64,000 nucleotides of DNA from Candidatus Campbellbacteria bacterium RIFOXYC2_FULL_35_25 (lineage in GTDB: Bacteria > Patescibacteriota > Minisyncoccia > Phycocordibacterales > UBA12079). Below are positions 2,582 to 49,940 of the stretch, piece by piece. Position 1 is the stretch's first letter; every line of letters begins with the position of its first letter. The DNA lies in contig MFAE01000014.1 of the NCBI GenBank assembly GCA_001774495.1, positions 10,573 to 74,572 on the forward strand, written 5' to 3'. A program made the translations under genes and the position numbers. The notes beneath the pieces were generated by a model. It was given only the letters and a program-made list of their open reading frames with translations, searched no databases and was not told the origin of the DNA.

Positions 2582-2899
2582 ATGAAATTTGCAGTAATAG
2601 AAACAGGAGGAAAACAATATAAGGTATCAGAAGGTGATATCATTAAGATTGAGAAACTTTCCGATGAAAATAAAGTAGGAGATAAGATAACTTTTGATAA
2701 GGTGCTTCTTATTGATGATGGAAAAACAACAAAGATAGGTTCTCCTTATATAGCAAAAGCTGTTGTTTCCGCAACACTTGAAGAAGAAGGAAAAGACAAA
2801 AAAATTCACATCATAAAATTTAAATCAAAGAGTAACTATTCAAAGAAGATAGGACACCGACAACCTTTTAATAAGGTAAAAGTTGAGAAGATTGCTTAA
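2582..2899 (+). CDS. rplU: 50S ribosomal protein L21
   Basis: MKFAVIETGGKQYKVSEGD matches the L21 N-terminal signature; 105 aa. Confidence 0.9.
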   Translation: MKFAVIETGGKQYKVSEGDIIKIEKLSDENKVGDKITFDKVLLIDDGKTTKIGSPYIAKAVVSATLEEEGKDKKIHIIKFKSKSNYSKKIGHRQPFNKVKVEKIA

Positions 2900-2905
2900 A
2901 TGATA

Positions 2906-2929
2906 AAATCCCCGCAAGGGGATTTTTTA
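2906..2929 (+). terminator. Rho-independent terminator after rplU
   Basis: aaatccccgcaaggggattttttag. Confidence 0.7.
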
Positions 2930-3227
2930 GTAGGTTCTATGGAAAGTAAGTTTATTTCCTCGTCCTTATTATGAGAGGAAGTTTTGAAAAAAGATTTCTT
3001 TTGAGAGACTGCACTCTCCTGAATAATTTGCTAAAGTGAGATTTCTCCTTTAAAAAATTTTTACGTTCTTGGCGGGTGAAAGGAAATACTTTTCTTTTTG
3101 TAGGCATAGAACCTCCTCGTAAGTTGAAAGGACCATTATTTTTCTAAATAAACAATAGCAAAGGTATGTTTAGTTTACAAGTTTTTAGGTAGCAAAAGCG
3201 CTAGAATTTTTATCCTTTTTGTATTAT

Positions 3228-3331
3228 AATTGCGAGCGAGGATAAATAAGAATAAATCTAAATTTATTCTTATTATATCCGAGCGAAGGAATTATATGCT
3301 TCGCATATAATTGCGAGCGAGGATAAATAAG
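3228..3331 (+). repeat. Two direct copies of the 25-nt motif ATAATTGCGAGCGAGGATAAATAAG, separated by small hairpins, just upstream of tRNA-Cys
   Basis: Exact 25-mer at 3228-3252 and 3307-3331; related TATAATTGCGAGC at 20744-20756; the CGAGCGAG/CTCGCT motif also occurs near the rplU start. Confidence 0.6.
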
Positions 3332-3347
3332 GGGGAATCGGATAAAA

Positions 3348-3419
3348 GGCGTAGTGGCGAAGTGGTAACGCTGTGGTTTGCAAAACCACCATGCGCCGGT
3401 TCGATTCCGGCCTACGCCT
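3348..3419 (+). tRNA. tRNA-Cys (GCA)
   Basis: Acceptor GGCGTAG/CTACGCC, anticodon loop TTGCAAA, T-arm GCCGGTTCGATTCCGGC, discriminator T. Confidence 0.85.
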
Positions 3420-3436
3420 CAGTTGTTCTTTAAATT

Positions 3437-3518
3437 GCCTAGGTGGCGGAATTGGTATACGCGCACGACTTAAAATCGTGTCTCTCACGGGATGCGGGTT
3501 CGACTCCCGCCCTAGGCA
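3437..3518 (+). tRNA. tRNA-Leu (TAA)
   Basis: Acceptor GCCTAGG/CCTAGGC, anticodon loop CTTAAAA, long variable arm, T-arm GCGGGTTCGACTCCCGC. Confidence 0.85.
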
Positions 3519-3900
3519 CATTAGAAATACTAAATATAATTTATTAAAAATTATATTTAGTATTTCTAATTCGTAAGTTGAGGGAGTCGAACAGAACTTT
3601 TTAAAAGCAAATTTCTTTGCTTTTAAAAAGTCCGAGGCTTCGGAGGAAAAAATTTTGATGTCGTTTCACGACCAAAAATTTTTGGAGGAGAAGGACTCCC
3701 GCCCTAGGCACATTAGAAACATTGAATATATTTTTTGTGGGGTATATTCAATGTTTCTAATCCGTAGGTTGCGGGAGTCGAACAGAACTTTTTAAAAGCA
3801 AATTTTTTTGCTTTTAAAAAGTCCGAGGCTTCGGAGGAAAAAGTTTTCTTTATCGCTTTGCGATTGAAAACTTTTGAGGGAGAAGGACTCCCGCCCTAGG
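3519..3900 (+). repeat. Two tandem ~190-nt structured units (3519-3710 and 3711-3900). Each ends with a direct copy of the tRNA-Leu 3' end (GGACTCCCGCCCTAGG, followed by CA in the first unit).
   Basis: Each unit has a ~50-nt perfect palindrome (cattagaaatactaaatataatttattaaaaattatatttagtatttctaat), then tcgtaag, then gagggagtcgaacagaac (the reverse complement of the Leu T-arm), then small hairpins, then the tRNA 3' copy. Confidence 0.7.
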
Positions 3901-4940: not shown

Positions 4941-5504
4941 TTAGTTTGGCCATGCTTCAATCAAAGCTTCGAGAATTCTTGCCATTTCCATACTGCCACC
5001 ACATTGCCCAGTGACGATTGCTTCGTCGACAAACCCATGTTTTTTGAGGTTCTGTAGACTCGGAAATTTATCCTTAAGGCCACAATCGCAAGTTAGCGTC
5101 GCGATGTAAGCATCCGGGAAGTCATCCCTTAAGGACTCGGTAAAATGAGTGGCTTCAGAAAAGCCAGACAGCCCGAGGTAAATCATGAAAAATAGGTTCT
5201 CGTGCAGGACAACTTCTGGATGTTCCCCGAGCAAACATTGTTCTACGTTTTGCTGGCAAATACTGGCCCTCATCTCCATTTGTGAAGGAGATGACCATTC
5301 CGAAACTCGTTCTCTGTGTCCATTTTCCGTTTCGCTCGCCGAGTAAACACTCAAACCTTGTTTCCCCGTGTCCACTTGGCCCCTATAACCCTGAATGCTG
5401 TTATAGGAGGTGAAGACGGCCGATAATTGACTTTTGCCTTTAATAATTTCTGGTATCTTCGCAATAAAATCTTCGGGTTTGATTAGCATCTCGGATTCCT
5501 CCAC
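4941..5504 (-). CDS. Hypothetical protein with visibly higher GC than its neighbours
   Basis: 187-aa ORF containing CDCG and GQCGGS motifs; a hairpin terminator at 4893-4920 lies downstream on the minus strand; no family recognised. Confidence 0.45.
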   Translation of the reverse strand: MEESEMLIKPEDFIAKIPEIIKGKSQLSAVFTSYNSIQGYRGQVDTGKQGLSVYSASETENGHRERVSEWSSPSQMEMRASICQQNVEQCLLGEHPEVVLHENLFFMIYLGLSGFSEATHFTESLRDDFPDAYIATLTCDCGLKDKFPSLQNLKKHGFVDEAIVTGQCGGSMEMARILEALIEAWPN

Positions 5505-23401: not shown

Positions 23402-23637
23402 AAAAATCCACAGTAGCCAGGCTACTGTGGATTTTTGTTTAGTAACTAAAAACTATCGACTATAAACTATAAACTAAAAACTATTCTTTCTCCTCTTTCA
23501 ACTGTACAAAGAATGTTGAACCTTTTCCTTCTCCTTCCGATTCTGCCCCTATCTTAACATCCTTTTCGGATGTTCGGGCGAACATTTTACCACTAAAACA
23601 ATTTATAAAATTGTTTTAGTGGTAAAATGTTTTAGCC
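23402..23637. repeat. Copy A of a repeat family derived from the 3' end and terminator of the histidine-kinase gene at 36506..38092; copy A also carries a ~115-nt hairpin insertion
   Basis: Hairpin aaaatccacagtagccaggctactgtggattttt; micro-repeat ctatcgactataaactataaactaaaaacta; antisense of ...AESEGEGKGSTFFVQLKEEKE*. Confidence 0.75.
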
Positions 23638-23713
23638 AAATTGTTCCAGGTTCAGTGTTGAATTCAAGATTTATGTTTATAGAAACTTGTTTTTGGGGTA
23701 TAATGATAAAATT

Positions 23714-29844: not shown

Positions 29845-30130
29845 AAAGAGGGTAGACCTAAGGCACAAAGCATTTTTTACAGATAAAATAAGAGTTGATG
29901 AAAACAAACCTCAATTATATGGGGCACAAGTTAGAAAAAAAGAAAACGGAGAAATAGAATTAATTGAAATAGAAGACAGAGAAAATGTAAATAAAAGGAG
30001 AAAGGAACTTGGGATGGAATCGCTAGAGAAGTATTTGGAACAATTTGGTGTTAAGTAAAAAATTAATAGAAATTCTATTTTTAATTAGATTTATTTAAAA
30101 GTAACTTAAAATTTTAATAATCTCCTACAC

Positions 30131-30385
30131 CTGTGGATTTTTATTTAGTAACTATCGACTATAAACTATAAACTAAAAACTATTCTTTCTCCTCTTTCAA
30201 CTGCACAAAGAAAGTAGAACCTTTTCCTTCTCCTTCCGATTCTGCCCAAACTTTTCCTCCGTGAGCTTTTACGATTTCTTTTATATTTTAACATAATTTT
30301 AAAAATTTTTAGTTTTTTATTGACATTTTTATTGACAGTTACAAGACTTTTGCTTGACAAAATAGTTTAGGTTGTTATTATTTAA
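30131..30385. repeat. Copy B of the HK-3'-end-derived repeat, fused to a module carrying three TTGACA boxes
   Basis: ~100 nt near-identical to the antisense of the HK C-terminal codons, then ttttatattttaacataattttaaaaatttttagttttttattgacatttttattgacag...cttgacaa. Confidence 0.75.
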
Positions 30386-30442
30386 GTAAACACAGTTCTT
30401 TATGGTAAAGTAGTCTTAATTTAAGAAAATAAGGAGAATGCA

Positions 30443-30529
30443 ATGAATACAGAGATGACAATCGAAGAAGTTTTTAAAAAGGAACGTCGCGGGCCAAAGG
30501 GTGGTTGTTCTAACGGAATCGCGGTGTAA
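30443..30529 (+). CDS. 28-aa small peptide MNTEMTIEEVFKKERRGPKGGCSNGIAV; candidate precursor peptide
   Basis: SD aaggagaatgcaATG; own promoter upstream; hairpin terminator gaggtgacgcaagtcacctc downstream; ATP-grasp gene follows. Confidence 0.4.
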   Translation: MNTEMTIEEVFKKERRGPKGGCSNGIAV

Positions 30530-30616
30530 TAACACCAAGCTCTTTTTTAGCAGAGAGGTGACGCAAGTCACCTCTTAACTTTTTTAGAAATCAGATTTTA
30601 ACAAAAGGAGCTTAGA

Positions 30617-31576
30617 ATGTTATTAATATTTTCTAGTACCTTGTCAAAGAAAAGTTTTCAACTCCAATTATTTGTAGAGGAAATGAAAAGAAGAGGTCTT
30701 CCTTGTGTTGTTGTTGATGTTCATGACATCGCTACTAATACAAAATTCTCAATTCAGCATAGTAATGATGGTGCATTTTTGTTTGAAGATGGTCAAAAAA
30801 TAATATCACCCCAAAAAGTTTATGTCATGAATGTTTGGAGAACTGATTCAATTATACGTTTACCCCCAGATTTTGATAAACCTCAATTGATTAGAAACAG
30901 AGTCTCTCAATTCGTAAATGATATTCGTTTTATTTTTGAAGATTGCATGTGGGTTCCTGGGAGAATTGAGGATATTGAGCGGGCTGATTCAAAAATGAGG
31001 CTATTCAAAGAAGCAGTTAGTTGTGGCCTCAATGTTCCTCGTTTTACAATCGATTCGCCTCATTACGATGGTAAGTTTGGAATTCCCGTCTATAAAAAAA
31101 GTCTTGGGTACCCATTTTCTATTTCTTACTCTAAGCAAAAGAAAAAAGAGGTTGCAGTTATTACGACAAATCTTCTTGTTGACAAGGAAAGTGATTCTGT
31201 GGGAGATGGTTTATTGTGGCAGTGGCAAGCTCCAATTTTGTCGAGCAAACAGATTCGGTGTCATGTTGTTGGAAACAAAATTTGGTCGGTAATGTGGGAT
31301 CGTGGTGTTTGTGGCGTTGAAGATTACAGGCATACATCCAACATAAAAAATGAAGTCATCAATTGGAAGCCCCACTCTCTTCCGGCGGAGATTTCTTCTC
31401 AAATTTTAAAATTAATGAAAAACCTTTCTGTGTGTATGGCAAGCCCAGAGTTTCTCGTTGATAAAAACGGGGATTACATATTAATTGACCTTAATCCTTG
31501 TGGTGATTGGTATGGGTTCTTCTCTAAAATTCAACGCAAAGAAATTTTGGACTCGATTATCCAGTTGTGTTGTTAG
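30617..31576 (+). CDS. ATP-grasp ligase (RimK/MdnC-like)
   Basis: FGIPVYKKSLGYPFS, RCHVVGNKIW, and C-terminal EFLVDKNGDYILIDLNPCGDW resembling the ATP-grasp DxNxxP region. Confidence 0.55.
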   Translation: MLLIFSSTLSKKSFQLQLFVEEMKRRGLPCVVVDVHDIATNTKFSIQHSNDGAFLFEDGQKIISPQKVYVMNVWRTDSIIRLPPDFDKPQLIRNRVSQFVNDIRFIFEDCMWVPGRIEDIERADSKMRLFKEAVSCGLNVPRFTIDSPHYDGKFGIPVYKKSLGYPFSISYSKQKKKEVAVITTNLLVDKESDSVGDGLLWQWQAPILSSKQIRCHVVGNKIWSVMWDRGVCGVEDYRHTSNIKNEVINWKPHSLPAEISSQILKLMKNLSVCMASPEFLVDKNGDYILIDLNPCGDWYGFFSKIQRKEILDSIIQLCC

Positions 31577-31631
31577 GGAAAAATTTTTGTTCGAAACTTG
31601 TTGTAACCAGATAAAGGTTGCAACAAGTTTT

Positions 31632-32195
31632 TTAAAAATATTTTTTAACTTTTTCCGTATAATTTGGGTCTGATATATTGTGGTTAACATCGGGAATTAT
31701 AAAAATCTCTTTTTTAGGAGCAATGATTTTTTTGTAAGAAATTTTTGAACGACGAATTGTTAGTGGCCATTCATTACTACCAACTAAAAAAGTTGTTTTT
31801 GCAGATATTTGTTTTGGAAGTCTTGTAGATTTAAATTCCAACATTCTTCTTTTGCCAAGTATTTTAAAAGCCAAATCTGGTAATTTATTAATATCATCTT
31901 CAAAATAAGGGGATAAAGAGCAAGATATAATTTTGTCTATTTTCGTCTTTTCACTTGCTAATAATGCAATGAAAGCACCAAAAGAAAAACCTATCACTGT
32001 TGTATTTTGATGACTAGAACCAACTTTTTTTGAAAAATCACTCACCCAATCAGACATTTTTTTGTATTTCCATTCGGGTTCCCAAAAAACAACATCGTAC
32101 CCCTTTTCTTTTCCAGATTTTATTAGTTGTTTGTATCCTAGATTTTTTGGGGATTCATGATACCCAGGAATTATATATAATTTTTCTTTTTGCAT
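31632..32195 (-). CDS. Small alpha/beta hydrolase (Ser_hydrolase/YdeN-like); paralog 1 of 4
   Basis: LYIIPGYHES N-terminus and GFSFGA nucleophile elbow. Confidence 0.5.
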   Translation of the reverse strand: MQKEKLYIIPGYHESPKNLGYKQLIKSGKEKGYDVVFWEPEWKYKKMSDWVSDFSKKVGSSHQNTTVIGFSFGAFIALLASEKTKIDKIISCSLSPYFEDDINKLPDLAFKILGKRRMLEFKSTRLPKQISAKTTFLVGSNEWPLTIRRSKISYKKIIAPKKEIFIIPDVNHNISDPNYTEKVKKYF

Positions 32196-32242
32196 AATAA
32201 TTACTACTTACTACTTAATACCCAATACTTGATACTTGATAC

Positions 32243-32560
32243 TATTCTTTCTCCTCCTTCAACTGTACAAAGAATGTTGAACCTTTTCCTTCTCCTTCCG
32301 ATTCTGACCCTATCTTAACATCCTTTTCGGATGTTCGGGCGAACATTTTACAACTAAAACAATTTATAAAATTGTTTTAGTGGTAAAATGTTTTAGCCAA
32401 ACCTTTCCTCCAGGGGCTTTTACTATTTCCTTTATATTTTAACATAATTTTAAAAATTTTTAGTTTTTTATTGACAGTATGCTTAAACGAGAGTAGCATT
32501 CAAGCGTAAGAGTTTGTATAGGATAAACTCTGTTCTTTGAGTATTTTTCAGATGGAAACT
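32243..32560. repeat. Copy C of the HK-derived repeat, with the same ~115-nt hairpin insertion as copy A plus the TTGACA promoter module and a palindromic leader
   Basis: ttattgacagtatgcttaaacgagagtagcat then caagcgtaagagtttgtataggataaactct. Confidence 0.75.
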
Positions 32561-32580: not shown

Positions 32581-32796
32581 ATGTCAAAGTGGACAGACAA
32601 GGATACGTCGGATTATTCGGGGGATTCCCCGAGTAAGGTTTCATCAGCAGAACATCAGGCTCGCGACGATGCCGAAAGGGCTGGATTATTTGAACGTGGT
32701 AATTCTGAGAAAAACAGGGAGCGTTTCAGCCACACAGATGAATCTGGTAAGGAGGCGACAAGTTTTTGGGAATCCATTTTCGGATCCAAAAAATAA
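32581..32796 (+). CDS. 71-aa hydrophilic small protein, GC-richer than its surroundings
   Basis: SD aaggaggtttcgttATG; terminator ggcgggcaaatggaaaaaatgcccgcc downstream. Confidence 0.45.
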   Translation: MSKWTDKDTSDYSGDSPSKVSSAEHQARDDAERAGLFERGNSEKNRERFSHTDESGKEATSFWESIFGSKK

Positions 32797-32974: not shown

Positions 32975-33511
32975 ATGAATAGAATTTATAATATAAAATA
33001 TACAGATGCCTATTATATTGATTTATCTTACGGGCATAACAAAAAATTACATAAGACAAAATTATCAGAGCATGAGGCTTATGGGTATGCAGAAAAATAT
33101 GGTAATAATATCGTAATTGCTTTTATAAAAGAAGAAAAAGACGATAGAAAAATCTCAGATAAAATAAAAAGAAAGGAGCATCTCATTAAAGGGATTATTG
33201 TTCCGGATACATCCATTCTATCTAAATTAACAAGTTTTAAAAGAAATATTTTCAAAAATATTCCTTTGGGATCAGAGGTGGTTGTTAATTGGAGAGATAT
33301 AGTTATTGTTGCAAATCAATCAAGATATGACTGTTCCACTATGTATACAGAGGGAGTATTTTTTAGAAACGAAGAAGATCATATTGTTTTAAAAAATCCA
33401 GAAACTATTCGTACCTATCCGACACCAGTTACAAATCATCCGATGGAAAAACCTCTTTTTTATGTTATTCCGAAGTCGTTTATCGTTGATATTTCTCCTG
33501 TAAATAATTAG
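32975..33511 (+). CDS. Hypothetical protein
   Basis: 178-aa ORF with local codon usage; no recognisable motifs. Confidence 0.35.
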   Translation: MNRIYNIKYTDAYYIDLSYGHNKKLHKTKLSEHEAYGYAEKYGNNIVIAFIKEEKDDRKISDKIKRKEHLIKGIIVPDTSILSKLTSFKRNIFKNIPLGSEVVVNWRDIVIVANQSRYDCSTMYTEGVFFRNEEDHIVLKNPETIRTYPTPVTNHPMEKPLFYVIPKSFIVDISPVNN

Positions 33512-33512
33512 A

Positions 33513-33758
33513 ATGGAAAAAAATAATTTAAAAAAAGAGAGAGAAGAAAACCAAATTGTAGAAATTATTCTGCACGATGATTCAAATACAATAAAAAAGT
33601 ATAAATGTGTTGGTGTTCTGATGAAAGAAAATGAAAAAACGTTAAGAATTGGATTTAACGCTGTTGAAAATGTTGTTAAAGATTATTTAGATATTAAGAA
33701 AAAAAATATAGTGGATATAAAAACAATTAATCCGAAAGAAATTTCTTCTTTATTTTGA
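33513..33758 (+). CDS. Hypothetical small protein
   Basis: 81-aa ORF immediately following the previous one. Confidence 0.3.
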   Translation: MEKNNLKKEREENQIVEIILHDDSNTIKKYKCVGVLMKENEKTLRIGFNAVENVVKDYLDIKKKNIVDIKTINPKEISSLF

Positions 33759-33785: not shown

Positions 33786-34080
33786 AAAAATCCACAGTAG
33801 CCAGGCTACTGTGGATTTTTGTTTAGTAACTAAAAACTATCGACTATAAACTATAAACTAAAAACTATTCTTTCTCTTCCTTCAACTGCACAAAGAAAGT
33901 AGAACCTTTTCCTTCTCCTTCCGATTCTGCCCAAACTTTTCCTCCATGAGCTTTTACGATTTCTTTTATATTTTAACATAATTTTAAAAATTTTTAGTTT
34001 TTTTATTGACAGTATACTTAAATGAGGGTAATATTTAAGTGTAAAAGTTTGTATAGTACAAACTTTGTTCTTTGAGTAGC
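33786..34080. repeat. Copy D of the HK-derived repeat with promoter TTGACA-17-TAATAT and a palindromic leader
   Basis: Full hairpin, micro-repeat, ~100-nt HK 3' antisense, tttttattgacagtatacttaaatgagggtaatat, agtttgtatagtacaaact. Confidence 0.75.
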
Positions 34081-34123
34081 TTTTACTCTAAATTTTTTTG
34101 TGCCAAAAAAGGAGGTGGGAGAA

Positions 34124-34237
34124 TTGGGCAAAGATATTATTGAGAAGATTATTCGTGATTCCTGTTATTTGGATAATTATTGTGACACACCGGGATATAA
34201 TGATCATTCCGGAAGTGATGAACATAACAAAAATTGA
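34124..34237 (+). CDS. 37-aa small peptide (TTG start) MGKDIIEKIIRDSCYLDNYCDTPGYNDHSGSDEHNKN; candidate precursor peptide
   Basis: SD aaggaggtg 5 nt upstream of TTG; hairpin terminator ggagggtgtggtaaaaacaccctcc; radical-SAM gene 74 nt downstream. Confidence 0.4.
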   Translation: MGKDIIEKIIRDSCYLDNYCDTPGYNDHSGSDEHNKN

Positions 34238-34310: not shown

Positions 34311-35399
34311 ATGTTTTATCCGACGCTTAAAGTTGTTTCTAGTAATTGTAATTTAAGATGCGTTTATTGTTATTACAAAGGAATTCACAGAAAAAAACCA
34401 ATAAGGATGAATGATATAACTTTAAAGAGCATAATTCAAAAATTATTAGCACTTAGCGGCGAAGAGAAAGAAGTTCATTTTTACTGGCACGGAGGAGAGC
34501 CTCTTTTAGCCGGAATAGATTTTTATCAAAAGATTATTTTACTGGAAAATGAATTAAATGTGTATGGTAAGAAAATCTGTAACCATATTCAAACAAATGC
34601 CACTTTGTTAACCGATAATTGGGTAGATTTTTTAGTGGGCAATGATTTTAATGTTGGAATTAGTCTTGATGGTCCAAAAGAAATTCAAGACGTCAATCGG
34701 CCAACTATTTCTGGGGGAGGGAGTTTTGATTCTGTGATGAAAGGTTTGAAACTTTTTCAAGAAAGAGAAAAATTTCCTAGTATCATTTCGGTTGTAACCA
34801 ACGAATCCCTCGGTAATGCTAACAAAATCTTTGATTTTTTTGTTGAAAACAAAATTAAAAGATTTTTACCAAAGGATTGCTGTGAAAGAGATGAAACTGG
34901 TAAATTTCTTCCTTTTTCAACAACTCCCGATGAGTATGTTGATTTTTTGATTGAATTATTTGAGTGTTGGATGAGTAAAAACGATCCAACTATCGAAATT
35001 AGAAATCTCTACCAAATAATCAGGGGTGTTGTTGGAGGGAAGACAACCCTTTGTGAGTATAGTGGGAGGTGCCATTTGTTCTTGACGATTGAGTATGATG
35101 GAACAATTGGCGGTTGTGACAGTTTCCCTGTAAAAAATTATCCAATGGGGAACATAAATGATTCCGCTGTTAGCAGTATTTTCGGGAGTCATGGTTATAA
35201 ATCTTTTTTAAGGGATATGGAATCAACAAGATTAGACTGTCACCATTGTGAGTGGTTTGGCAATGTTTGTGGTGGTGGGTGTTTGGGTCATTCCTATTCC
35301 GAACAAAATTCTGCTTGGGGGAAAAATATTTTTTGTACTCCCAAAAAGAGACTCTTTGAATATATAAAAAGAAGAGTCTCCGAAATACAAAATAATTGA
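34311..35399 (+). CDS. Radical SAM enzyme with C-terminal SPASM domain (anSME-like peptide/protein maturase)
   Basis: CNLRCVYC radical-SAM cluster, WHGGEPLL, auxiliary clusters CEYSGRCH and CHHCEWFGNVCGGGC. Confidence 0.8.
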   Translation: MFYPTLKVVSSNCNLRCVYCYYKGIHRKKPIRMNDITLKSIIQKLLALSGEEKEVHFYWHGGEPLLAGIDFYQKIILLENELNVYGKKICNHIQTNATLLTDNWVDFLVGNDFNVGISLDGPKEIQDVNRPTISGGGSFDSVMKGLKLFQEREKFPSIISVVTNESLGNANKIFDFFVENKIKRFLPKDCCERDETGKFLPFSTTPDEYVDFLIELFECWMSKNDPTIEIRNLYQIIRGVVGGKTTLCEYSGRCHLFLTIEYDGTIGGCDSFPVKNYPMGNINDSAVSSIFGSHGYKSFLRDMESTRLDCHHCEWFGNVCGGGCLGHSYSEQNSAWGKNIFCTPKKRLFEYIKRRVSEIQNN

Positions 35400-35453: not shown

Positions 35454-36434
35454 TTACCTTATTATTTTAATAATTTCACTTATAAAGTGTTTATCTATTT
35501 TTTTATTATCGTTTAAATATTCTTTGATCAGAGGATGTAGGTTTATCGCTATAAAAAAGTACACACCTATTTCATCATTTCTAGTTATGTTGCTTTTGTT
35601 ATTTTTAACAGATATAAAAGTATTTTTGTATTTTTTGAGATTTGAAGACGTTGTTTCTTTCGGGTGTTTGTAAAAATATTTATTTGACAAAAATCCGTGG
35701 TAAGAAAACAAAGAATGAACGACAATTTCTTCCATGGTATTTCTCAGGTCACGATAGGGTATTATTTTACTCTTCCCATTCTCTTCATAGAAATGACTGC
35801 TAATTATTCTAATTTTTTTTCCAAATAGCATGTGTAAAAATTCATGGTAAACAACAGATATTGCGTTGTTCAAAATCTCTTTTCCTGTCTCTGAAAGGTC
35901 GTTGCATTCAATTGTTATCCCTTTGTTTTTTAAGTTAGCTCCACCAGATACAATCTTATTTTTGTAAGGGTGTTGCAGTAGATAAATATCAAATTTTCTT
36001 CTTCTAATTTTACCGAATAAAGTTTCTAAAGCATTTATTATTTTTGGTAAAGTCTTATTAATTTCTTTTGTTAATATTTTAATATTTTTTTCTAAAATCT
36101 GGGAATTCCAGATTTCTTTGAATTTATCTTCAAAAATATCAAAAATTTCTTTTAATTCTCCTAGCTCTGTTTTTGTGACAATCTTTGAAAGATTTTTCCA
36201 AACCTTTTTTTCTTTACTTGTGATAAAAAATAATCCTAAATAATTTGCAAAATTATATTTTTGTAAAATTTTTTTAAATTGTTCTAGTGAATTTTTTTCT
36301 TTTTTTGATAAATCGCCGATTTTATTCAGCCAAACTTCATTATAATTTTTTCTGCAAGAAAAATGCCATTCTGTTAAATTTGAAACAAAGAAAAATTTAT
36401 TACCCATTCTGCTATATTTAATATTAAATTGCAT
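35454..36434 (-). CDS. Hypothetical protein
   Basis: 326-aa ORF, AT-rich and lysine-rich, no motifs recognised. Confidence 0.4.
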   Translation of the reverse strand: MQFNIKYSRMGNKFFFVSNLTEWHFSCRKNYNEVWLNKIGDLSKKEKNSLEQFKKILQKYNFANYLGLFFITSKEKKVWKNLSKIVTKTELGELKEIFDIFEDKFKEIWNSQILEKNIKILTKEINKTLPKIINALETLFGKIRRRKFDIYLLQHPYKNKIVSGGANLKNKGITIECNDLSETGKEILNNAISVVYHEFLHMLFGKKIRIISSHFYEENGKSKIIPYRDLRNTMEEIVVHSLFSYHGFLSNKYFYKHPKETTSSNLKKYKNTFISVKNNKSNITRNDEIGVYFFIAINLHPLIKEYLNDNKKIDKHFISEIIKIIR

Positions 36435-36505
36435 ATCTATACCTGTGGATTTTTATTTAGTAACTACAAACTAAAAACTATCGACTATAAACTATAAACT
36501 AAAAA

Positions 36506-38092
36506 CTATTCTTTCTCCTCTTTCAACTGCACAAAGAAAGTTGAACCTTTTCCTTCTCCTTCCGATTCTGCCCAAACTTTTCCTCCGTGTGCTTTTACGA
36601 TTTCTTTTACTAAATAGAGACCCAAGCCCGTTCCCATCACACTAACGCTGTTGGCATTTTCGAGTCTGATAAATTTCTTGAAGATTTTGTGAGCTTCCTT
36701 CTTTGGTAATCCGATACCAGTATCTTGTATTTTTAATAGTATTTTATGAGCTTTTTTTGATAGGCTAATATGAATAGAACCCTTCGGAGTATATTTGATT
36801 GAATTATCAATCAAATTGGTGACAATTTGTCTTATTTTTTCTGGGTCAATTTGTGAAAAGAATATTCCTTCTTGTAATTCAAATTTCATTTTTAGGCCTT
36901 TTTCTTCAATAACATGTTTCATGTCATTAACGACTTCTTGAACTATGGGTTTAATATCGGCTTTAACAAAATTAAATTCAATTTTACCTCTCTCTATCCT
37001 TGAAAGGTTAAGGAAGTCGTCTACGATAAAAGCTAGATTGCTACTTGATTGAAAAATTCTTTTAATTATTTCAGAAATTTTTTCAGATGTCGGTCCGTAT
37101 GATCCTTCCATCACCATTGAAGAGTAGCCCTTTATGGAAGCAATAGGGGCTCTTAATTGGTGAGAGGCAACGGAAACAAAATCAGATTTTTGTTGGTCAA
37201 GTTTTTTAAGTCTAATATTCGCTTTTTCAAGTTCCTCTGCAAGTAATTCGATTTTTCTTTTCGCTTGTATTTCTTTGAAAATACTTCTGTTCAGGAGAAC
37301 CACAAAAATGACCATCATGACAAATAAGGCAAAATTTATCATCCATTCATCTACCGAATTCGTTGGCTTCAAAAAATTAAACAAGAAGATTAAGGCCATT
37401 GCTCCAGAAAAAAGTTGAGCAGAGATTATTTTTGTATTTAAAAATTTGTATTTAAGGATAGCGTAACTTACAAAAAATACATATAAGATTATAAAATAAT
37501 TTCCAAAAGGATAAATATTGAAAAGTTGAGGAAAAAAGTTTGTAATTCCCCCACTGAAACCAATAAATCCAGCAATTATTTGGTTTCTTATCTGCCCACG
37601 GTAAAGATAATCTTTTTTATTTTTTAAGTATGTTTTTATTAGATACAGTAAAGAGATTATTATTATAATTATAAAAAAGGTCGGAAATAAAAAATAATAT
37701 TTTCCGGGATCTACCCAATAAAAATCAAAAGTTTTTACCACTCCTAGTTTGAACAATGGAGAAAAACTAAAAATTGCTAATAATCCAGTGAGAAAAAGGA
37801 CAGCTTTTTTAAAATTAGTTTTTTTTATTTCTAAAAAATTAAAAATAAAATTAAGATATAGAATAGGAATAAAAATTGCTGTAAAGTCTAAGCAATATAA
37901 CCATAATAAAGCTGAATTTTCTGTTTGGGAGTAAGCCCCTTTGTAAAGAAAAATGCTCCAAAAAGCAATAAATATAGATAAAATTAACCAAGATTTATTT
38001 AGTTTTGATCTTCTGTTGCTAGAGTATACAATTAAACCAAAACCGATACTGGTAAAAAAAGTTATAATACTTGTTATTCCAAATAATGTCAT
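36506..38092 (-). CDS. Sensor histidine kinase (polytopic N-terminal membrane domain, HisKA and HATPase_c)
   Basis: SHQLRAPIASIKGY H-box; GTGLGLYLVKEIVKAHGGKVWAESEGEGKGSTFF G-box region; its 3' end is the source of the repeat family. Confidence 0.8.
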   Translation of the reverse strand: MTLFGITSIITFFTSIGFGLIVYSSNRRSKLNKSWLILSIFIAFWSIFLYKGAYSQTENSALLWLYCLDFTAIFIPILYLNFIFNFLEIKKTNFKKAVLFLTGLLAIFSFSPLFKLGVVKTFDFYWVDPGKYYFLFPTFFIIIIIISLLYLIKTYLKNKKDYLYRGQIRNQIIAGFIGFSGGITNFFPQLFNIYPFGNYFIILYVFFVSYAILKYKFLNTKIISAQLFSGAMALIFLFNFLKPTNSVDEWMINFALFVMMVIFVVLLNRSIFKEIQAKRKIELLAEELEKANIRLKKLDQQKSDFVSVASHQLRAPIASIKGYSSMVMEGSYGPTSEKISEIIKRIFQSSSNLAFIVDDFLNLSRIERGKIEFNFVKADIKPIVQEVVNDMKHVIEEKGLKMKFELQEGIFFSQIDPEKIRQIVTNLIDNSIKYTPKGSIHISLSKKAHKILLKIQDTGIGLPKKEAHKIFKKFIRLENANSVSVMGTGLGLYLVKEIVKAHGGKVWAESEGEGKGSTFFVQLKEEKE

Positions 38093-49171: not shown

Positions 49172-49240
49172 ATGTCTGGTAACGGTGGAAACCATCAAGG
49201 TGGTGGAACTGGAGGGGGCGGCGGCGGCCGGAAGCAGTAA
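49172..49240 (+). CDS. 22-aa glycine-rich peptide MSGNGGNHQGGGTGGGGGGRKQ
   Basis: ATG 7 nt after the cassette SD; hairpin and T-run downstream; C39-like peptidase gene follows. Confidence 0.35.
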   Translation: MSGNGGNHQGGGTGGGGGGRKQ

Positions 49241-49298
49241 CCTTCGGTTTTTTCTAAAAGGGGTGGCTGTTGCCACTCCCTTTTTATATAATAAAGAC

Positions 49299-49940
49299 AT
49301 GAAAAAAATACCATTTTATTCTAATTTAAAAGATAATAATCATTGCATCCAAGCTTGTTTGAAGATGGTTATTAAGTATTACTTTCCAGCAAAAAATTAC
49401 TCTTTTAAAGAGTTAGACAAAATGTCAAAACATAAAAAAGGAATGTGGACTTGGCAGGGAGCTTCTTTGCTCGCTCTCGCAGATATGGGTCTTGAAGTTG
49501 TAAATATTGAAAATATAGATTACAAAAAATTTGCTGAGCAGGGGGAAATGTATTTACAAAATATTTGGAGTGAAGAGGTTTTTGCAACACAAGATAAATA
49601 TTCAGATTTAAAGCAAGAAAAGAAAATTGCACAAAAAATGGTTGAGAGTAAAAAAATGAAATTGGCAAATAGGGATGCAAAATTTTCTGATGTTGAGGGT
49701 TATTTTGCCAAGGATTATTTGGTTTTAGTTTCTGTGAATCCTTGTGTTTTTGAAAATAAAAAGTGTTATTGGAGTCACATTGTTTTAATTACCGATATAA
49801 ATGACCGCTGGGTCACATTTCATGATGTCGGTTTACCTCCTGTCGAAAATAGAAAAATCAGTAGAAAAATTTTTGAAAAAGCGATGACTAAACCTTGGAA
49901 AGAGGACACTAATGTCATTGCTTTAAAATATGAAAAATAA
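49299..49940 (+). CDS. Papain-like cysteine peptidase, C39-like (bacteriocin-processing type) domain protein
   Basis: NNHCIQACLKMVIKYY (Cys nucleophile context) and HIVLITDINDRWVTFHDVG (His context); tool start at 49185 lies upstream of the likely ATG at 49299. Confidence 0.45.
   Translation: MKKIPFYSNLKDNNHCIQACLKMVIKYYFPAKNYSFKELDKMSKHKKGMWTWQGASLLALADMGLEVVNIENIDYKKFAEQGEMYLQNIWSEEVFATQDKYSDLKQEKKIAQKMVESKKMKLANRDAKFSDVEGYFAKDYLVLVSVNPCVFENKKCYWSHIVLITDINDRWVTFHDVGLPPVENRKISRKIFEKAMTKPWKEDTNVIALKYEK

Follow-up and report, generated by a model that had tools for sequence, protein, structure and literature searches.

Does a 28-amino-acid (aa) open reading frame (ORF) located immediately upstream of an ATP-grasp ligase gene encode the precursor of a peptide that is made by the ribosome and modified after translation (RiPP), and if so, which bond does the ligase form? 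The question is raised by a locus of Candidatus Campbellbacteria bacterium RIFOXYC2_FULL_35_25, a member of the Candidate Phyla Radiation (CPR), in a 64-kb stretch of contig MFAE01000014.1 that was analyzed as a whole (the window; all coordinates below refer to it). An initial annotation of this DNA had suggested a graspetide, i.e., a peptide crosslinked through its side chains by an ATP-grasp enzyme. Judging from sequence comparison, this placed the enzyme in the right neighborhood; what emerges from the comparison is a minimal precursor with an obligatory esterase and, as a prediction, a lactone between a Thr or Ser residue and the C-terminus. The three genes, encoding the peptide, the ligase, and the esterase-like hydrolase, form by sequence criteria a single unit, and every locus with a named organism belongs to CPR bacteria.

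The peptide gene is preceded by three copies of TTGACA on the plus strand (30320, 30332, and 30354) within a promoter region that spans 30277–30381. Since the window as a whole contains 30 copies of this hexamer, below the approximately 41 expected, three copies within 40 nt constitute a true local cluster. The top sigma-70-like match, with 11 of 12 consensus positions, is found at 30354–30381 (TTGACA-16 nt-TATTAT, with TG upstream). Further along the plus strand, the sequence contains a Shine-Dalgarno (SD) element AAGGAG at 30431–30436, 6 nt ahead of the ATG at 30443, the 28-aa ORF itself (30443–30529; MNTEMTIEEVFKKERRGPKGGCSNGIAV), and an intrinsic-terminator-like hairpin with a T-run (30553–30586). 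The 10-bp G+C-rich stem of this hairpin occupies 30553–30576, and its predicted fold (dG −27.6 kcal/mol, z = −4.5) was not equaled by any of 200 shuffled sequences. The ligase gene (30617–31576, plus strand, 319 aa; the product is 100% identical to OGD66764.1) has its own SD element AAAGGAG at 30604–30610 and starts 87 nt past the stop codon of the peptide gene. A bidirectional terminator hairpin of 16 bp (31593–31631, inverted repeat I5, fold z = −5.4) is shared by the ligase gene and the convergent gene of a 187-aa alpha/beta hydrolase (31632–32195, minus strand; Pfam Ser_hydrolase). The arrangement of a small ORF, a hairpin, a ligase gene, and a convergent hydrolase gene recurs at every homologous locus examined, and is thus more than a chance layout. 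An Rfam scan of the whole window yielded five tRNAs only, none of them in or near the module, so the conserved region upstream matches no known riboswitch or leader RNA. The promoter boxes, the SD elements, the hairpin, and the three genes had all been correctly located by the initial annotation; the hydrolase gene proved to be no incidental neighbor, but an obligatory third gene of the module.

Pfam gave no match for the ligase even at E ≤ 10, and its family was therefore assigned from searches of NCBIfam, the Protein Data Bank (PDB), and predicted folds. The sole NCBIfam matches were the MvdC, SAV_5884, MvdD, and grasp-with-SPASM maturases (E from 6e-19 to 2e-6), and the scores of 68.3, 64.0, and 58.7 bits remain below all of the respective cut-offs of 425, 350, and 475 bits (TIGR04184, TIGR04185, and TIGR04187); no rimK_fam or glutathione-synthase model of NCBIfam matched at E ≤ 1. 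PDB matches found by sequence or family profile were graspetide macrocyclases only (AMdnB, MdnC, CdnC, MdnB, and PruB), with an identity of just 14–18% to the solved enzymes. An AlphaFold2 model of the ligase built on 33 family members (pLDDT 93, pTM 0.90) retrieved graspetide ligases (CdnC, MdnC, PruB, AMdnB, MdnB, and PsnB) as all of its top 30 Foldseek matches, RimK appearing from rank 31. A profile search of 1.84 billion representative sequences produced 48 matches at E ≤ 1e-30, and below these the scores fall from at least 120 bits to approximately 100 bits, where the canonical maturases of the MvdC/MvdD/SAV_5884 type begin. The family and fold matches, together with this gap in profile scores, identify the ligase family as a discrete and divergent sister group of the graspetide ligases. 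By sequence and modeled fold, then, the protein of 319 aa can be placed as a divergent member in the superfamily of graspetide macrocyclases such as MdnC, CdnC, and PsnB, within a discrete clade of about 48 representatives. A housekeeping enzyme of the RimK/GshB type was rejected: NCBIfam gave no such match, RimK ranks behind the graspetide ligases in Foldseek, and the outgroup in the profile search consists of graspetide maturases rather than of RimK or GshB.

All loci for which an organism name is available come from CPR bacteria, namely, Campbell-, Vogel-, Nomura-, Zambryski-, and Saccharibacteria or Paceibacterota. Residues invariant in the ligase family are R75, K126, K161, E178, R214, R238, E278, D291, and N293. 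The Mg/ATP ligands are retained, as is the D-x-R loop, which reads DYR in the window and DLR in the family consensus as opposed to DWR, so that the aromatic position of the loop is here occupied by Y or L. In a profile alignment, the Arg of the family segment qiRcvvvg corresponds to the conserved Arg of ELRITIVG in MdnC and CdnC. In PsnB, Arg213 escorts the ring-forming carboxylate to ATP and is conserved across graspetide ligases, and roles have likewise been described for the D(F/W)R loop and the Mg/ATP ligands (10.1101/2021.03.09.434688). On the strength of this reported conservation we equate the family Arg with PsnB Arg213, the alignment itself having been made with MdnC and CdnC rather than with PsnB.

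To characterize the peptide, 50 homologous loci (designated by L numbers) were fetched, and all ORFs in the 300–450 nt upstream of the ligase gene were listed. Wherever upstream DNA was available, a single ORF of 24–51 aa was present, ending 13–89 nt ahead of the ligase gene where complete. The set contains 33 distinct peptides (32 complete ORFs and a partial one truncated by the contig end in L003), and the co-conservation of peptide and ligase holds for all 33 distinct loci; the ligase gene is always accompanied by its own small peptide gene. Most of these ORFs are preceded by an SD-like GGAG or AGGAGG, four (L002, L005, L010, and L015) lacking one. Codons vary synonymously between loci (ACT, ACC, ACA, and ACG for Thr, CAT and CAC for His, and all four codons for Gly), and all three stop codons are used; hence, conservation acts at the protein level.

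A G+C-rich hairpin separates the peptide stop codon from the ligase SD element in 25 of 26 loci, its sequences being unrelated to each other. The order precursor-terminator-enzyme is usual where much precursor and little enzyme is made, and the hairpin is presumed to be an attenuator that sets a high precursor-to-enzyme ratio. The same arrangement could also be read in another way, with the ORF as a cis-acting attenuation or ribosome-arrest peptide that governs the downstream terminator and ligase expression, the true substrate being encoded elsewhere. This would account for an ORF that is followed within 7–28 nt by an intrinsic terminator, directly ahead of an enzyme gene, in 25 of 26 loci. 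It would also agree with the constant spacing between conserved residues and the stop codon that is typical of arrest peptides such as TnaC; the His-His-Cys of one peptide class could in principle be regulatory codons, and the remaining classes do not have them. On the other hand, RiPP operons often have a terminator behind the precursor gene, all relatives of the ligase modify an adjacently encoded peptide, and the module is autonomous in approximately 27 genomic contexts with no other candidate substrate nearby. Moreover, a leader-like amphipathic motif is conserved 12–21 residues upstream of a fixed Thr/Ser, and no antiterminator pairing was seen, though no search aimed at antiterminators was made. 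We therefore consider a purely regulatory ORF improbable, while noting that the regulatory and precursor roles are not mutually exclusive.

The motif in question, a loose one in the N-terminal half of the peptides, has the form (S/T)(I/L)x(D/E)(L/I/V) and is found in approximately 26 of 31 peptides, 12–21 residues ahead of the C-terminal block. It is represented by TIEEV in the window (T6-I-E-E-V10, 30458–30472, plus strand) and by SIDEL, SIEEI, SLESL, TIDEL, SIKDL, or TLASL in other loci; in some members, N, Q, A, or S takes the place of the acidic residue. By analogy with graspetide leaders, it is predicted to be the element recognized by the ligase.

The C-terminal block follows a different rule. 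Counted from the C-terminus, position −6 is occupied by Thr or Ser in all 33 distinct peptides and is the sole invariant residue, Ser and Thr together making up only 15% of the residues of these peptides. The stop codon always comes directly after the five residues that follow this Thr/Ser, which is preceded by Pro in most members. Positions −5 to −1, in contrast to position −6, fall into mutually unalignable classes: xHHCG, (R/Y)Y(I/L)GG, NGIAV, and NWLAL. The corresponding hexapeptides are T-x-H-(H/F)-C-G; T-(R/Y)-Y-(I/L)-G-G and T-Y-D-I-G-G; and, in the clade of the window, S-(N/S)-G-I-A-V and S-N-W-L-A-L. Of the 32 complete distinct peptides, 29 end in Gly, many of them in GG. A neighbor-joining tree of the ligases has the HHCG class at its base and the YIGG class in two or three of its clades, and the class of the window forms one derived clade. 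Given this distribution, the C-terminal hexapeptide has been replaced repeatedly, and the Thr/Ser at −6 was kept throughout.

Acidic residues, which the initial annotation had counted among the likely crosslink sites, show no such constraint. Both Asp and Glu are missing altogether from seven of the 33 distinct peptides (L002, L005, L009, L010, L025, L026, and L049; e.g., MKTIATPKKAVKVNKWKPRITKHHCG and, from L049, MKKQIIAIVLQMGKKPRPTRHHCG). No acidic position is conserved in the family, and the last six residues are free of Asp and Glu in 32 of 33 peptides, the sole exception being TYDIGG of L003. These observations bear directly on canonical graspetide chemistry, in which omega-ester or omega-amide links would join Thr, Ser, or Lys to Asp or Glu side chains, e.g., among T3, T6, E4, E8, E9, K12, K13, and E14 of the window peptide. 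That peptide, with four Glu, two Thr, and several Lys, would offer the necessary residues, and the ligase is homologous to enzymes of the MdnC/PsnB type with the carboxylate-binding Arg and the D-x-R loop retained. However, such links are hard to reconcile with the acid-free homologs and with the invariance of Thr/Ser(−6) alone; the T-I-E-E-V segment of the window peptide aligns with the leader-like motif, whose acidic position is dispensable elsewhere, and the ligase scores far under the equivalog cut-off of the canonical families (68 vs. 425 bits). The acid-free peptides led us to reject canonical side-chain crosslinking for the whole family, and in the window we regard it as very improbable. 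The graspetide signature seen initially in this gene pair was therefore borne out with respect to the kinship of the ligase and the conservation of the small ORF, and not with respect to the crosslinks: the T-I-E-E-V segment, with some of the Thr and Glu residues proposed to form them, corresponds to the family leader motif, and the one residue that never changes is the Thr/Ser at −6.

The third gene is as constant as the other two. A convergent hydrolase gene was detected by tblastn directly downstream of the ligase gene in 40 of 43 loci, the other three being contigs that end too early, and it was also found by gene calling in L044–L050; in other words, it is present wherever downstream DNA exists. 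The hydrolase has a nucleophile Ser71 in the motif GFSFG (GFSxG in the family) and an invariant His172, and its model (pLDDT 82) has a fold closest to small esterases, lipases, and type II thioesterases (ABHD10, feruloyl esterases, RedJ, and TesA). It might either cut off the leader, serving as the leader peptidase of a minimal set of precursor, cyclase, and protease, or re-open a lactone for turnover or self-protection. In four loci from Zambryskibacteria and metagenome contigs (L012, L040, L041, and L042), the hydrolase gene is intact, and of the ligase beside it no more than the last ~29 residues are detectable; the module may have decayed there and left the hydrolase as its sole survivor.

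Clustering of ORFs over 27 distinct loci and contexts showed that the ligase and the hydrolase alone recur generally. As nothing else recurs, the module consists of three genes, those of the peptide, the ligase, and the hydrolase. PADLOC and PHROGs searches with the proteins of the module and of the neighboring cassettes returned nothing except a generic radical-SAM match; hence, an origin from a known defense system or a phage is not supported. Taken together, the comparative data make it very probable that the 28-aa ORF is a genuine precursor gene transcribed from its own strong promoter, with a hairpin that lets part of the transcription into the ligase gene; that a graspetide-type ligase acts on the peptide and recognizes T-I-E-E-V; and that the hydrolase is the third obligatory component.

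What, then, would the ligase do? ATP-grasp enzymes of the graspetide clade phosphorylate a carboxylate and hand the acyl group over to a nucleophile. In the acid-free members, the C-terminus is the only carboxylate of the peptide open to such activation, since they have neither Asp nor Glu, and a hydroxyl at a fixed distance from the C-terminus is most simply explained as an intramolecular nucleophile. RimK, which works on the C-terminal carboxylate of a protein, is the next-best structural neighbor of the ligase after the graspetide enzymes, and we count this in favor of chemistry at the C-terminus. From these patterns we infer that the peptide is the substrate, that its C-terminus is the activated carboxylate, and that Thr/Ser(−6) closes the ring. 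In the window, the predicted core is Ser23-Asn-Gly-Ile-Ala-Val28 (30509–30526, plus strand), with Ser23 at position −6. The ligase would phosphorylate the C-terminal alpha-carboxylate of Val28, the Ser23 hydroxyl would attack the acyl-phosphate, and the product would be cyclo-O-(Ser-Asn-Gly-Ile-Ala-Val) with residues 1–22 (the leader) still attached. For this six-residue side-chain-to-tail macrolactone, formed by esterification of the alpha-carboxylate to Thr/Ser(−6), we put the chances at about even.

The C-terminus as the sole available carboxylate would fit equally well with an intermolecular reaction, in which the activated C-terminus is joined to free amino acids, as in RimK-like tailing, to an amine, or to a lysine of a target protein, as with a Pup- or ubiquitin-like tag, and is later released by the hydrolase. 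A terminal Gly in 29 of 32 complete peptides, often as GG, would be natural for such a tag; RimK-type enzymes are the next structural neighbors, and a ligase combined with an ester or amide hydrolase resembles a write/erase pair. Intermolecular ligation, however, leaves unexplained why a hydroxyl always stands at exactly six residues from the end even though the intervening residues change class. In addition, the clade of the window ends in AV or AL rather than GG, the nearest relatives of the ligase are intramolecular macrocyclases and not RimK, and no conserved target gene travels with the module in 27 contexts. We consider it rather unlikely. A different use of the invariant hydroxyl would be its phosphorylation by the ATP-grasp protein, or its acylation with a small-molecule carboxylate, with the C-terminus serving only as an anchor. 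Some enzymes with the ATP-grasp fold are indeed kinases, e.g., inositol-phosphate kinases, and the invariant residue is a hydroxyl amino acid. Yet the ligase clade keeps the carboxylate-recognizing Arg and the D-x-R loop, and the partner enzyme is a Ser-His hydrolase of an esterase-like fold, not a phosphatase, which makes this kind of chemistry very improbable.

Several considerations weigh against the macrolactone and the model built around it. The ring is predicted from sequence patterns alone, and the literature searched contains no ATP-grasp RiPP enzyme that macrocyclizes through the C-terminal alpha-carboxylate, so that the reaction has no precedent in the clade. A ribosome-arrest or attenuation peptide, too, would be expected to keep a residue at a constant distance from its stop codon, and a terminator does follow the ORF. 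The C-terminal Gly of most peptides, as GG or CG, would suit intermolecular ligation at the C-terminus as well. The ring class of the window, SNGIAV, is backed by three loci only (the window, L001, and L002), and the ORF of L002 has no visible SD element. Finally, the hydrolase gene in the window has no obvious promoter of its own, and neither an exporter nor a recognizable peptidase is among the recurring genes of the module.

Graspetide systems (MdnA/MdnB/MdnC, PsnA/PsnB, CdnA/CdnC, and PruB) are the closest relatives of the module. By sequence and fold, their enzymes belong to the same superfamily of ATP-grasp macrocyclases, with the carboxylate-binding Arg, the D-x-R loop, and the ATP/Mg ligands in common. 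Common to both are also a short precursor encoded just upstream, an N-terminal recognition motif, a hydroxyl as the likely nucleophile, and a stem-loop between the precursor and enzyme genes. The family described here differs in that its ligases lie below all curated cut-offs, have no Pfam match, and share only 14–18% identity with the solved members, and in that most precursors have only 24–36 aa. It also lacks a conserved Asp/Glu acceptor, so that the predicted link connects a side chain to the alpha-carboxylate instead of another side chain; it is strictly accompanied by a small esterase-like hydrolase; and its hosts at all named loci are CPR bacteria.

Graspetide-type ATP-grasp loci in CPR genomes have been described before, as branches 1 and 2 in WWE3, Giovannoni-, Gottesman-, Woese-, and Yanofskybacteria (Makarova et al., 2022; PMC8939145). 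The predicted precursors of these branches have 50–140 aa, acidic cores of the TxxxTx(6-10)Dx(1-4)D type, and a Phhx(1,2)h leader, and a secreted protein of “cluster 23” is always present; branch 2 has radical SAM/SPASM and possible alpha/beta hydrolase neighbors, and small precursors may have been missed. In the window family, by contrast, the precursor size, the acidic core, the leader type, and the cluster 23 protein are all without counterpart, and accessions of its ligases were not found in the accessible portion of the supplement. Identity with these branches was rejected because the phyla, the precursors, and the accompanying genes are different. A recent RODEO survey established 43 graspetide groups based on patterns of donor and acceptor residues (Carter, 2026; PMC13097080); the portion of its supplement at hand has no entries for the Pfam families of the hydrolase (PF06821 and PF12146), Parcubacteria, or Campbellbacteria. 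A full-text literature search for ATP-grasp ring closure onto a C-terminal carboxylate, for accessions of the window family, and for HHCG peptides retrieved none of them.

RimK, which poly-glutamylates ribosomal protein S6 at its C-terminus, and the LysX/LysW-type enzymes are ATP-grasp systems whose target is likewise the C-terminal residue or carboxylate of a polypeptide made by the ribosome. They differ in that free amino acids or carrier-bound intermediates are added intermolecularly and no ring is formed, and in that the substrates are housekeeping proteins (S6, ending in Glu-Glu, in the case of RimK) rather than a dedicated small peptide.

The genomic setting of the module in the window is that of a cassette array. 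Five direct copies of a repeat (family D1), each composed of a terminator, a spacer, and the last ~100 nt of a histidine-kinase gene, are 89–98% identical to each other by alignment and are located at 23419–23640 (c0), 30125–30325 (c1), 32212–32476 (c2), 33803–34010 (c3), and 36437–36609. The source of the repeated sequence is the 3′ end of the gene for a seven-transmembrane histidine kinase (36506–38092, minus strand; HisKA_7TM, HisKA, and HATPase_c in Pfam). The repeats delimit four cassettes in a 13-kb island, and the c1, c2, and c3 cassettes each open with a small ORF. Copy c1 (minus strand, annotated there at 30125–30318), the left boundary of the module cassette, encodes KEIVKAHGGKVWAESEGEGKGSTFFVQLKEEKE followed by a stop codon and is 98% identical to the real kinase 3′ end at 36476–36609. 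Copy c2 (minus strand), the right boundary, is a kinase 3′ fragment with a ~90-nt hairpin insertion; on the plus strand it is followed by the shared promoter of the next cassette, and on the minus strand the kinase fragment runs directly into the hydrolase gene, an arrangement that is seen intact in L007. The insertion is shared by c2 (32311–32396) and c0 (23549–23640), its hairpin arms at 32342–32365 and 32369–32392 are 96% complementary, and it may be a miniature mobile element.

A 42-nt promoter stretch with TTATTGACA at its end is 100% identical across the c1, c2, and c3 cassettes. In the module cassette, the promoter boxes at 30317–30359 (plus strand) form 9-mer direct repeats (TTATTGACA, TTATTGACA, and TGCTTGACA) with spacings of 12 and 22 nt, which would fit a response-regulator binding site; cassettes 2 and 3 have a single copy.

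In L033 and L029, too, the module is bracketed by direct repeats, derived in these loci from the other end of the same acyltransferase-HAD-kinase operon: those of L033 (312–492 and 2441–2620; 183 nt, 82% identity) overlap the 5′ end of the acyltransferase gene, and those of L029 are found at 205–289, 2113–2188, and 4966–5011. The array looks like the outcome of repeated single-crossover (Campbell-type) integration at the ends of this operon, in the window at the kinase 3′ end; the cassettes contain no integrase gene. In the closest homologous locus, L001, a transposase-like gene (2829–3671, minus strand) with a faint match to the integrase-core family rve of Pfam lies just upstream of the peptide gene, which is consistent with mobility of the module.

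The neighboring cassettes have contents of their own. Cassette 2 contains a hydrophilic 71-aa ORF with a strong SD element (32581–32796, plus strand) and two proteins without a family match, of 178 aa (32975–33511, plus strand) and 81 aa (33513–33758, plus strand); a relative of the 178-aa protein occurs near the module in L029, L030, and L036, and up to the start codon, the 5′ leaders of this cassette and of cassette 3 share 74% identity. A second RiPP candidate is apparent in cassette 3, with a 45-aa ORF (34100–34237, plus strand; GTG start, weak SD element) that has three Y-x-D motifs (YLD, YCD, and YND), a radical SAM/SPASM enzyme (34311–35399, plus strand) that matches the anaerobic sulfatase maturase, DynA, GrrM/OscB, and YhhB models of NCBIfam, the last three for cyclophane-forming maturases, all below cut-off, and a convergent 326-aa protein with a zincin-type HEFLH motif (35454–36434, minus strand). 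At a distance of 18 kb from the module, a 251-aa ORF (49185–49940, plus strand) has a weak match to Peptidase_C39 (E 4.6e-4, just below cut-off), a family whose members remove the leaders of many bacteriocins and RiPPs. Directly upstream of c1, a startless stretch of 70 codons (29846–30058, plus strand) matches the C-terminal part of DUF6624 in Pfam (E 1.3e-5, profile positions 101–162 of 173) and appears to be a gene remnant; DUF6624 is frequent in graspetide groups 18, 20, 23, and 42 according to the RODEO survey (PMC13097080).

Orthologs of the kinase adjoin the module in six other loci (L005, L007, L010, L028, L033, and L047), and the kinase gene is adjacent in only 7 of approximately 34 loci; by recurrent adjacency only, the kinase is a possible functional partner. 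A further comparison is with the Agr autoinducing peptides (AIPs; AgrD/AgrB) and the Enterococcus peptide GBAP (FsrD/FsrB), whose (thio)lactone, made by an unrelated protease, is the nearest known product topology. The predicted topology is the same, with the side chain of Cys or Ser joined to the C-terminal carboxyl and an exocyclic N-terminal tail, and short ribosomal precursors and a multi-pass membrane histidine kinase, here recurring nearby, are likewise shared. The route would be different: the AIP ring is closed without ATP by the membrane protease AgrB, which cuts off a C-terminal tail, as opposed to an ATP-dependent ligase here, and as the ORFs of the window family end exactly at the predicted ring, there is no tail for cleavage of the AgrB type. 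The ring would have six residues, compared with five in AIP and nine in GBAP, and the kinase is of the HisKA type with HisKA_7TM and not of the AgrC/HPK10 type, its match to HATPase_c_5 being weak (E 0.002). No membrane peptidase of the AgrB/FsrB type is among the recurring genes, where only the ligase and the soluble hydrolase are found, and no response regulator, including LytTR, was seen among the 28 window ORFs scanned.

One may speculate further along these lines. If the leader were cut off directly before Thr/Ser, the lactone could turn spontaneously into a head-to-tail cyclic hexapeptide by an O-to-N acyl shift. The peptide made by the module might be a diffusible signal for the recurring seven-transmembrane kinase, with the co-transcribed esterase degrading or proofreading it, so that a peptide quorum- or host-sensing circuit would operate in CPR episymbionts, and single-crossover events at the ends of the kinase operon might serve to exchange the cassettes by integration. 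As a whole, this extended scenario of an AIP/GBAP-like lactone made by an unrelated ATP-driven route is distinctly unlikely.

If the predicted macrolactone chemistry is true, it would extend the enzymology of ATP-grasp RiPP ligases from side-chain carboxylates to the C-terminal alpha-carboxylate, and side-chain-to-tail depsipeptide rings, otherwise the products of thioesterases of nonribosomal peptide synthetases or of proteases of the AgrB type, would become accessible by a ribosomal route. The system would be a very small one for macrocyclization at the C-terminus, with a precursor of 24–36 aa and a ligase of 310–320 aa. The current mining rules for graspetides, which are keyed to patterns of Asp/Glu acceptors, would miss this family. 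It would also mean a dedicated peptide product in CPR bacteria. The genomes of these bacteria are reduced and keep few biosynthetic pathways; for this reason, a three-gene module that is conserved, autonomous, and shuffled horizontally is probably of importance for how symbionts interact with each other or with their hosts.

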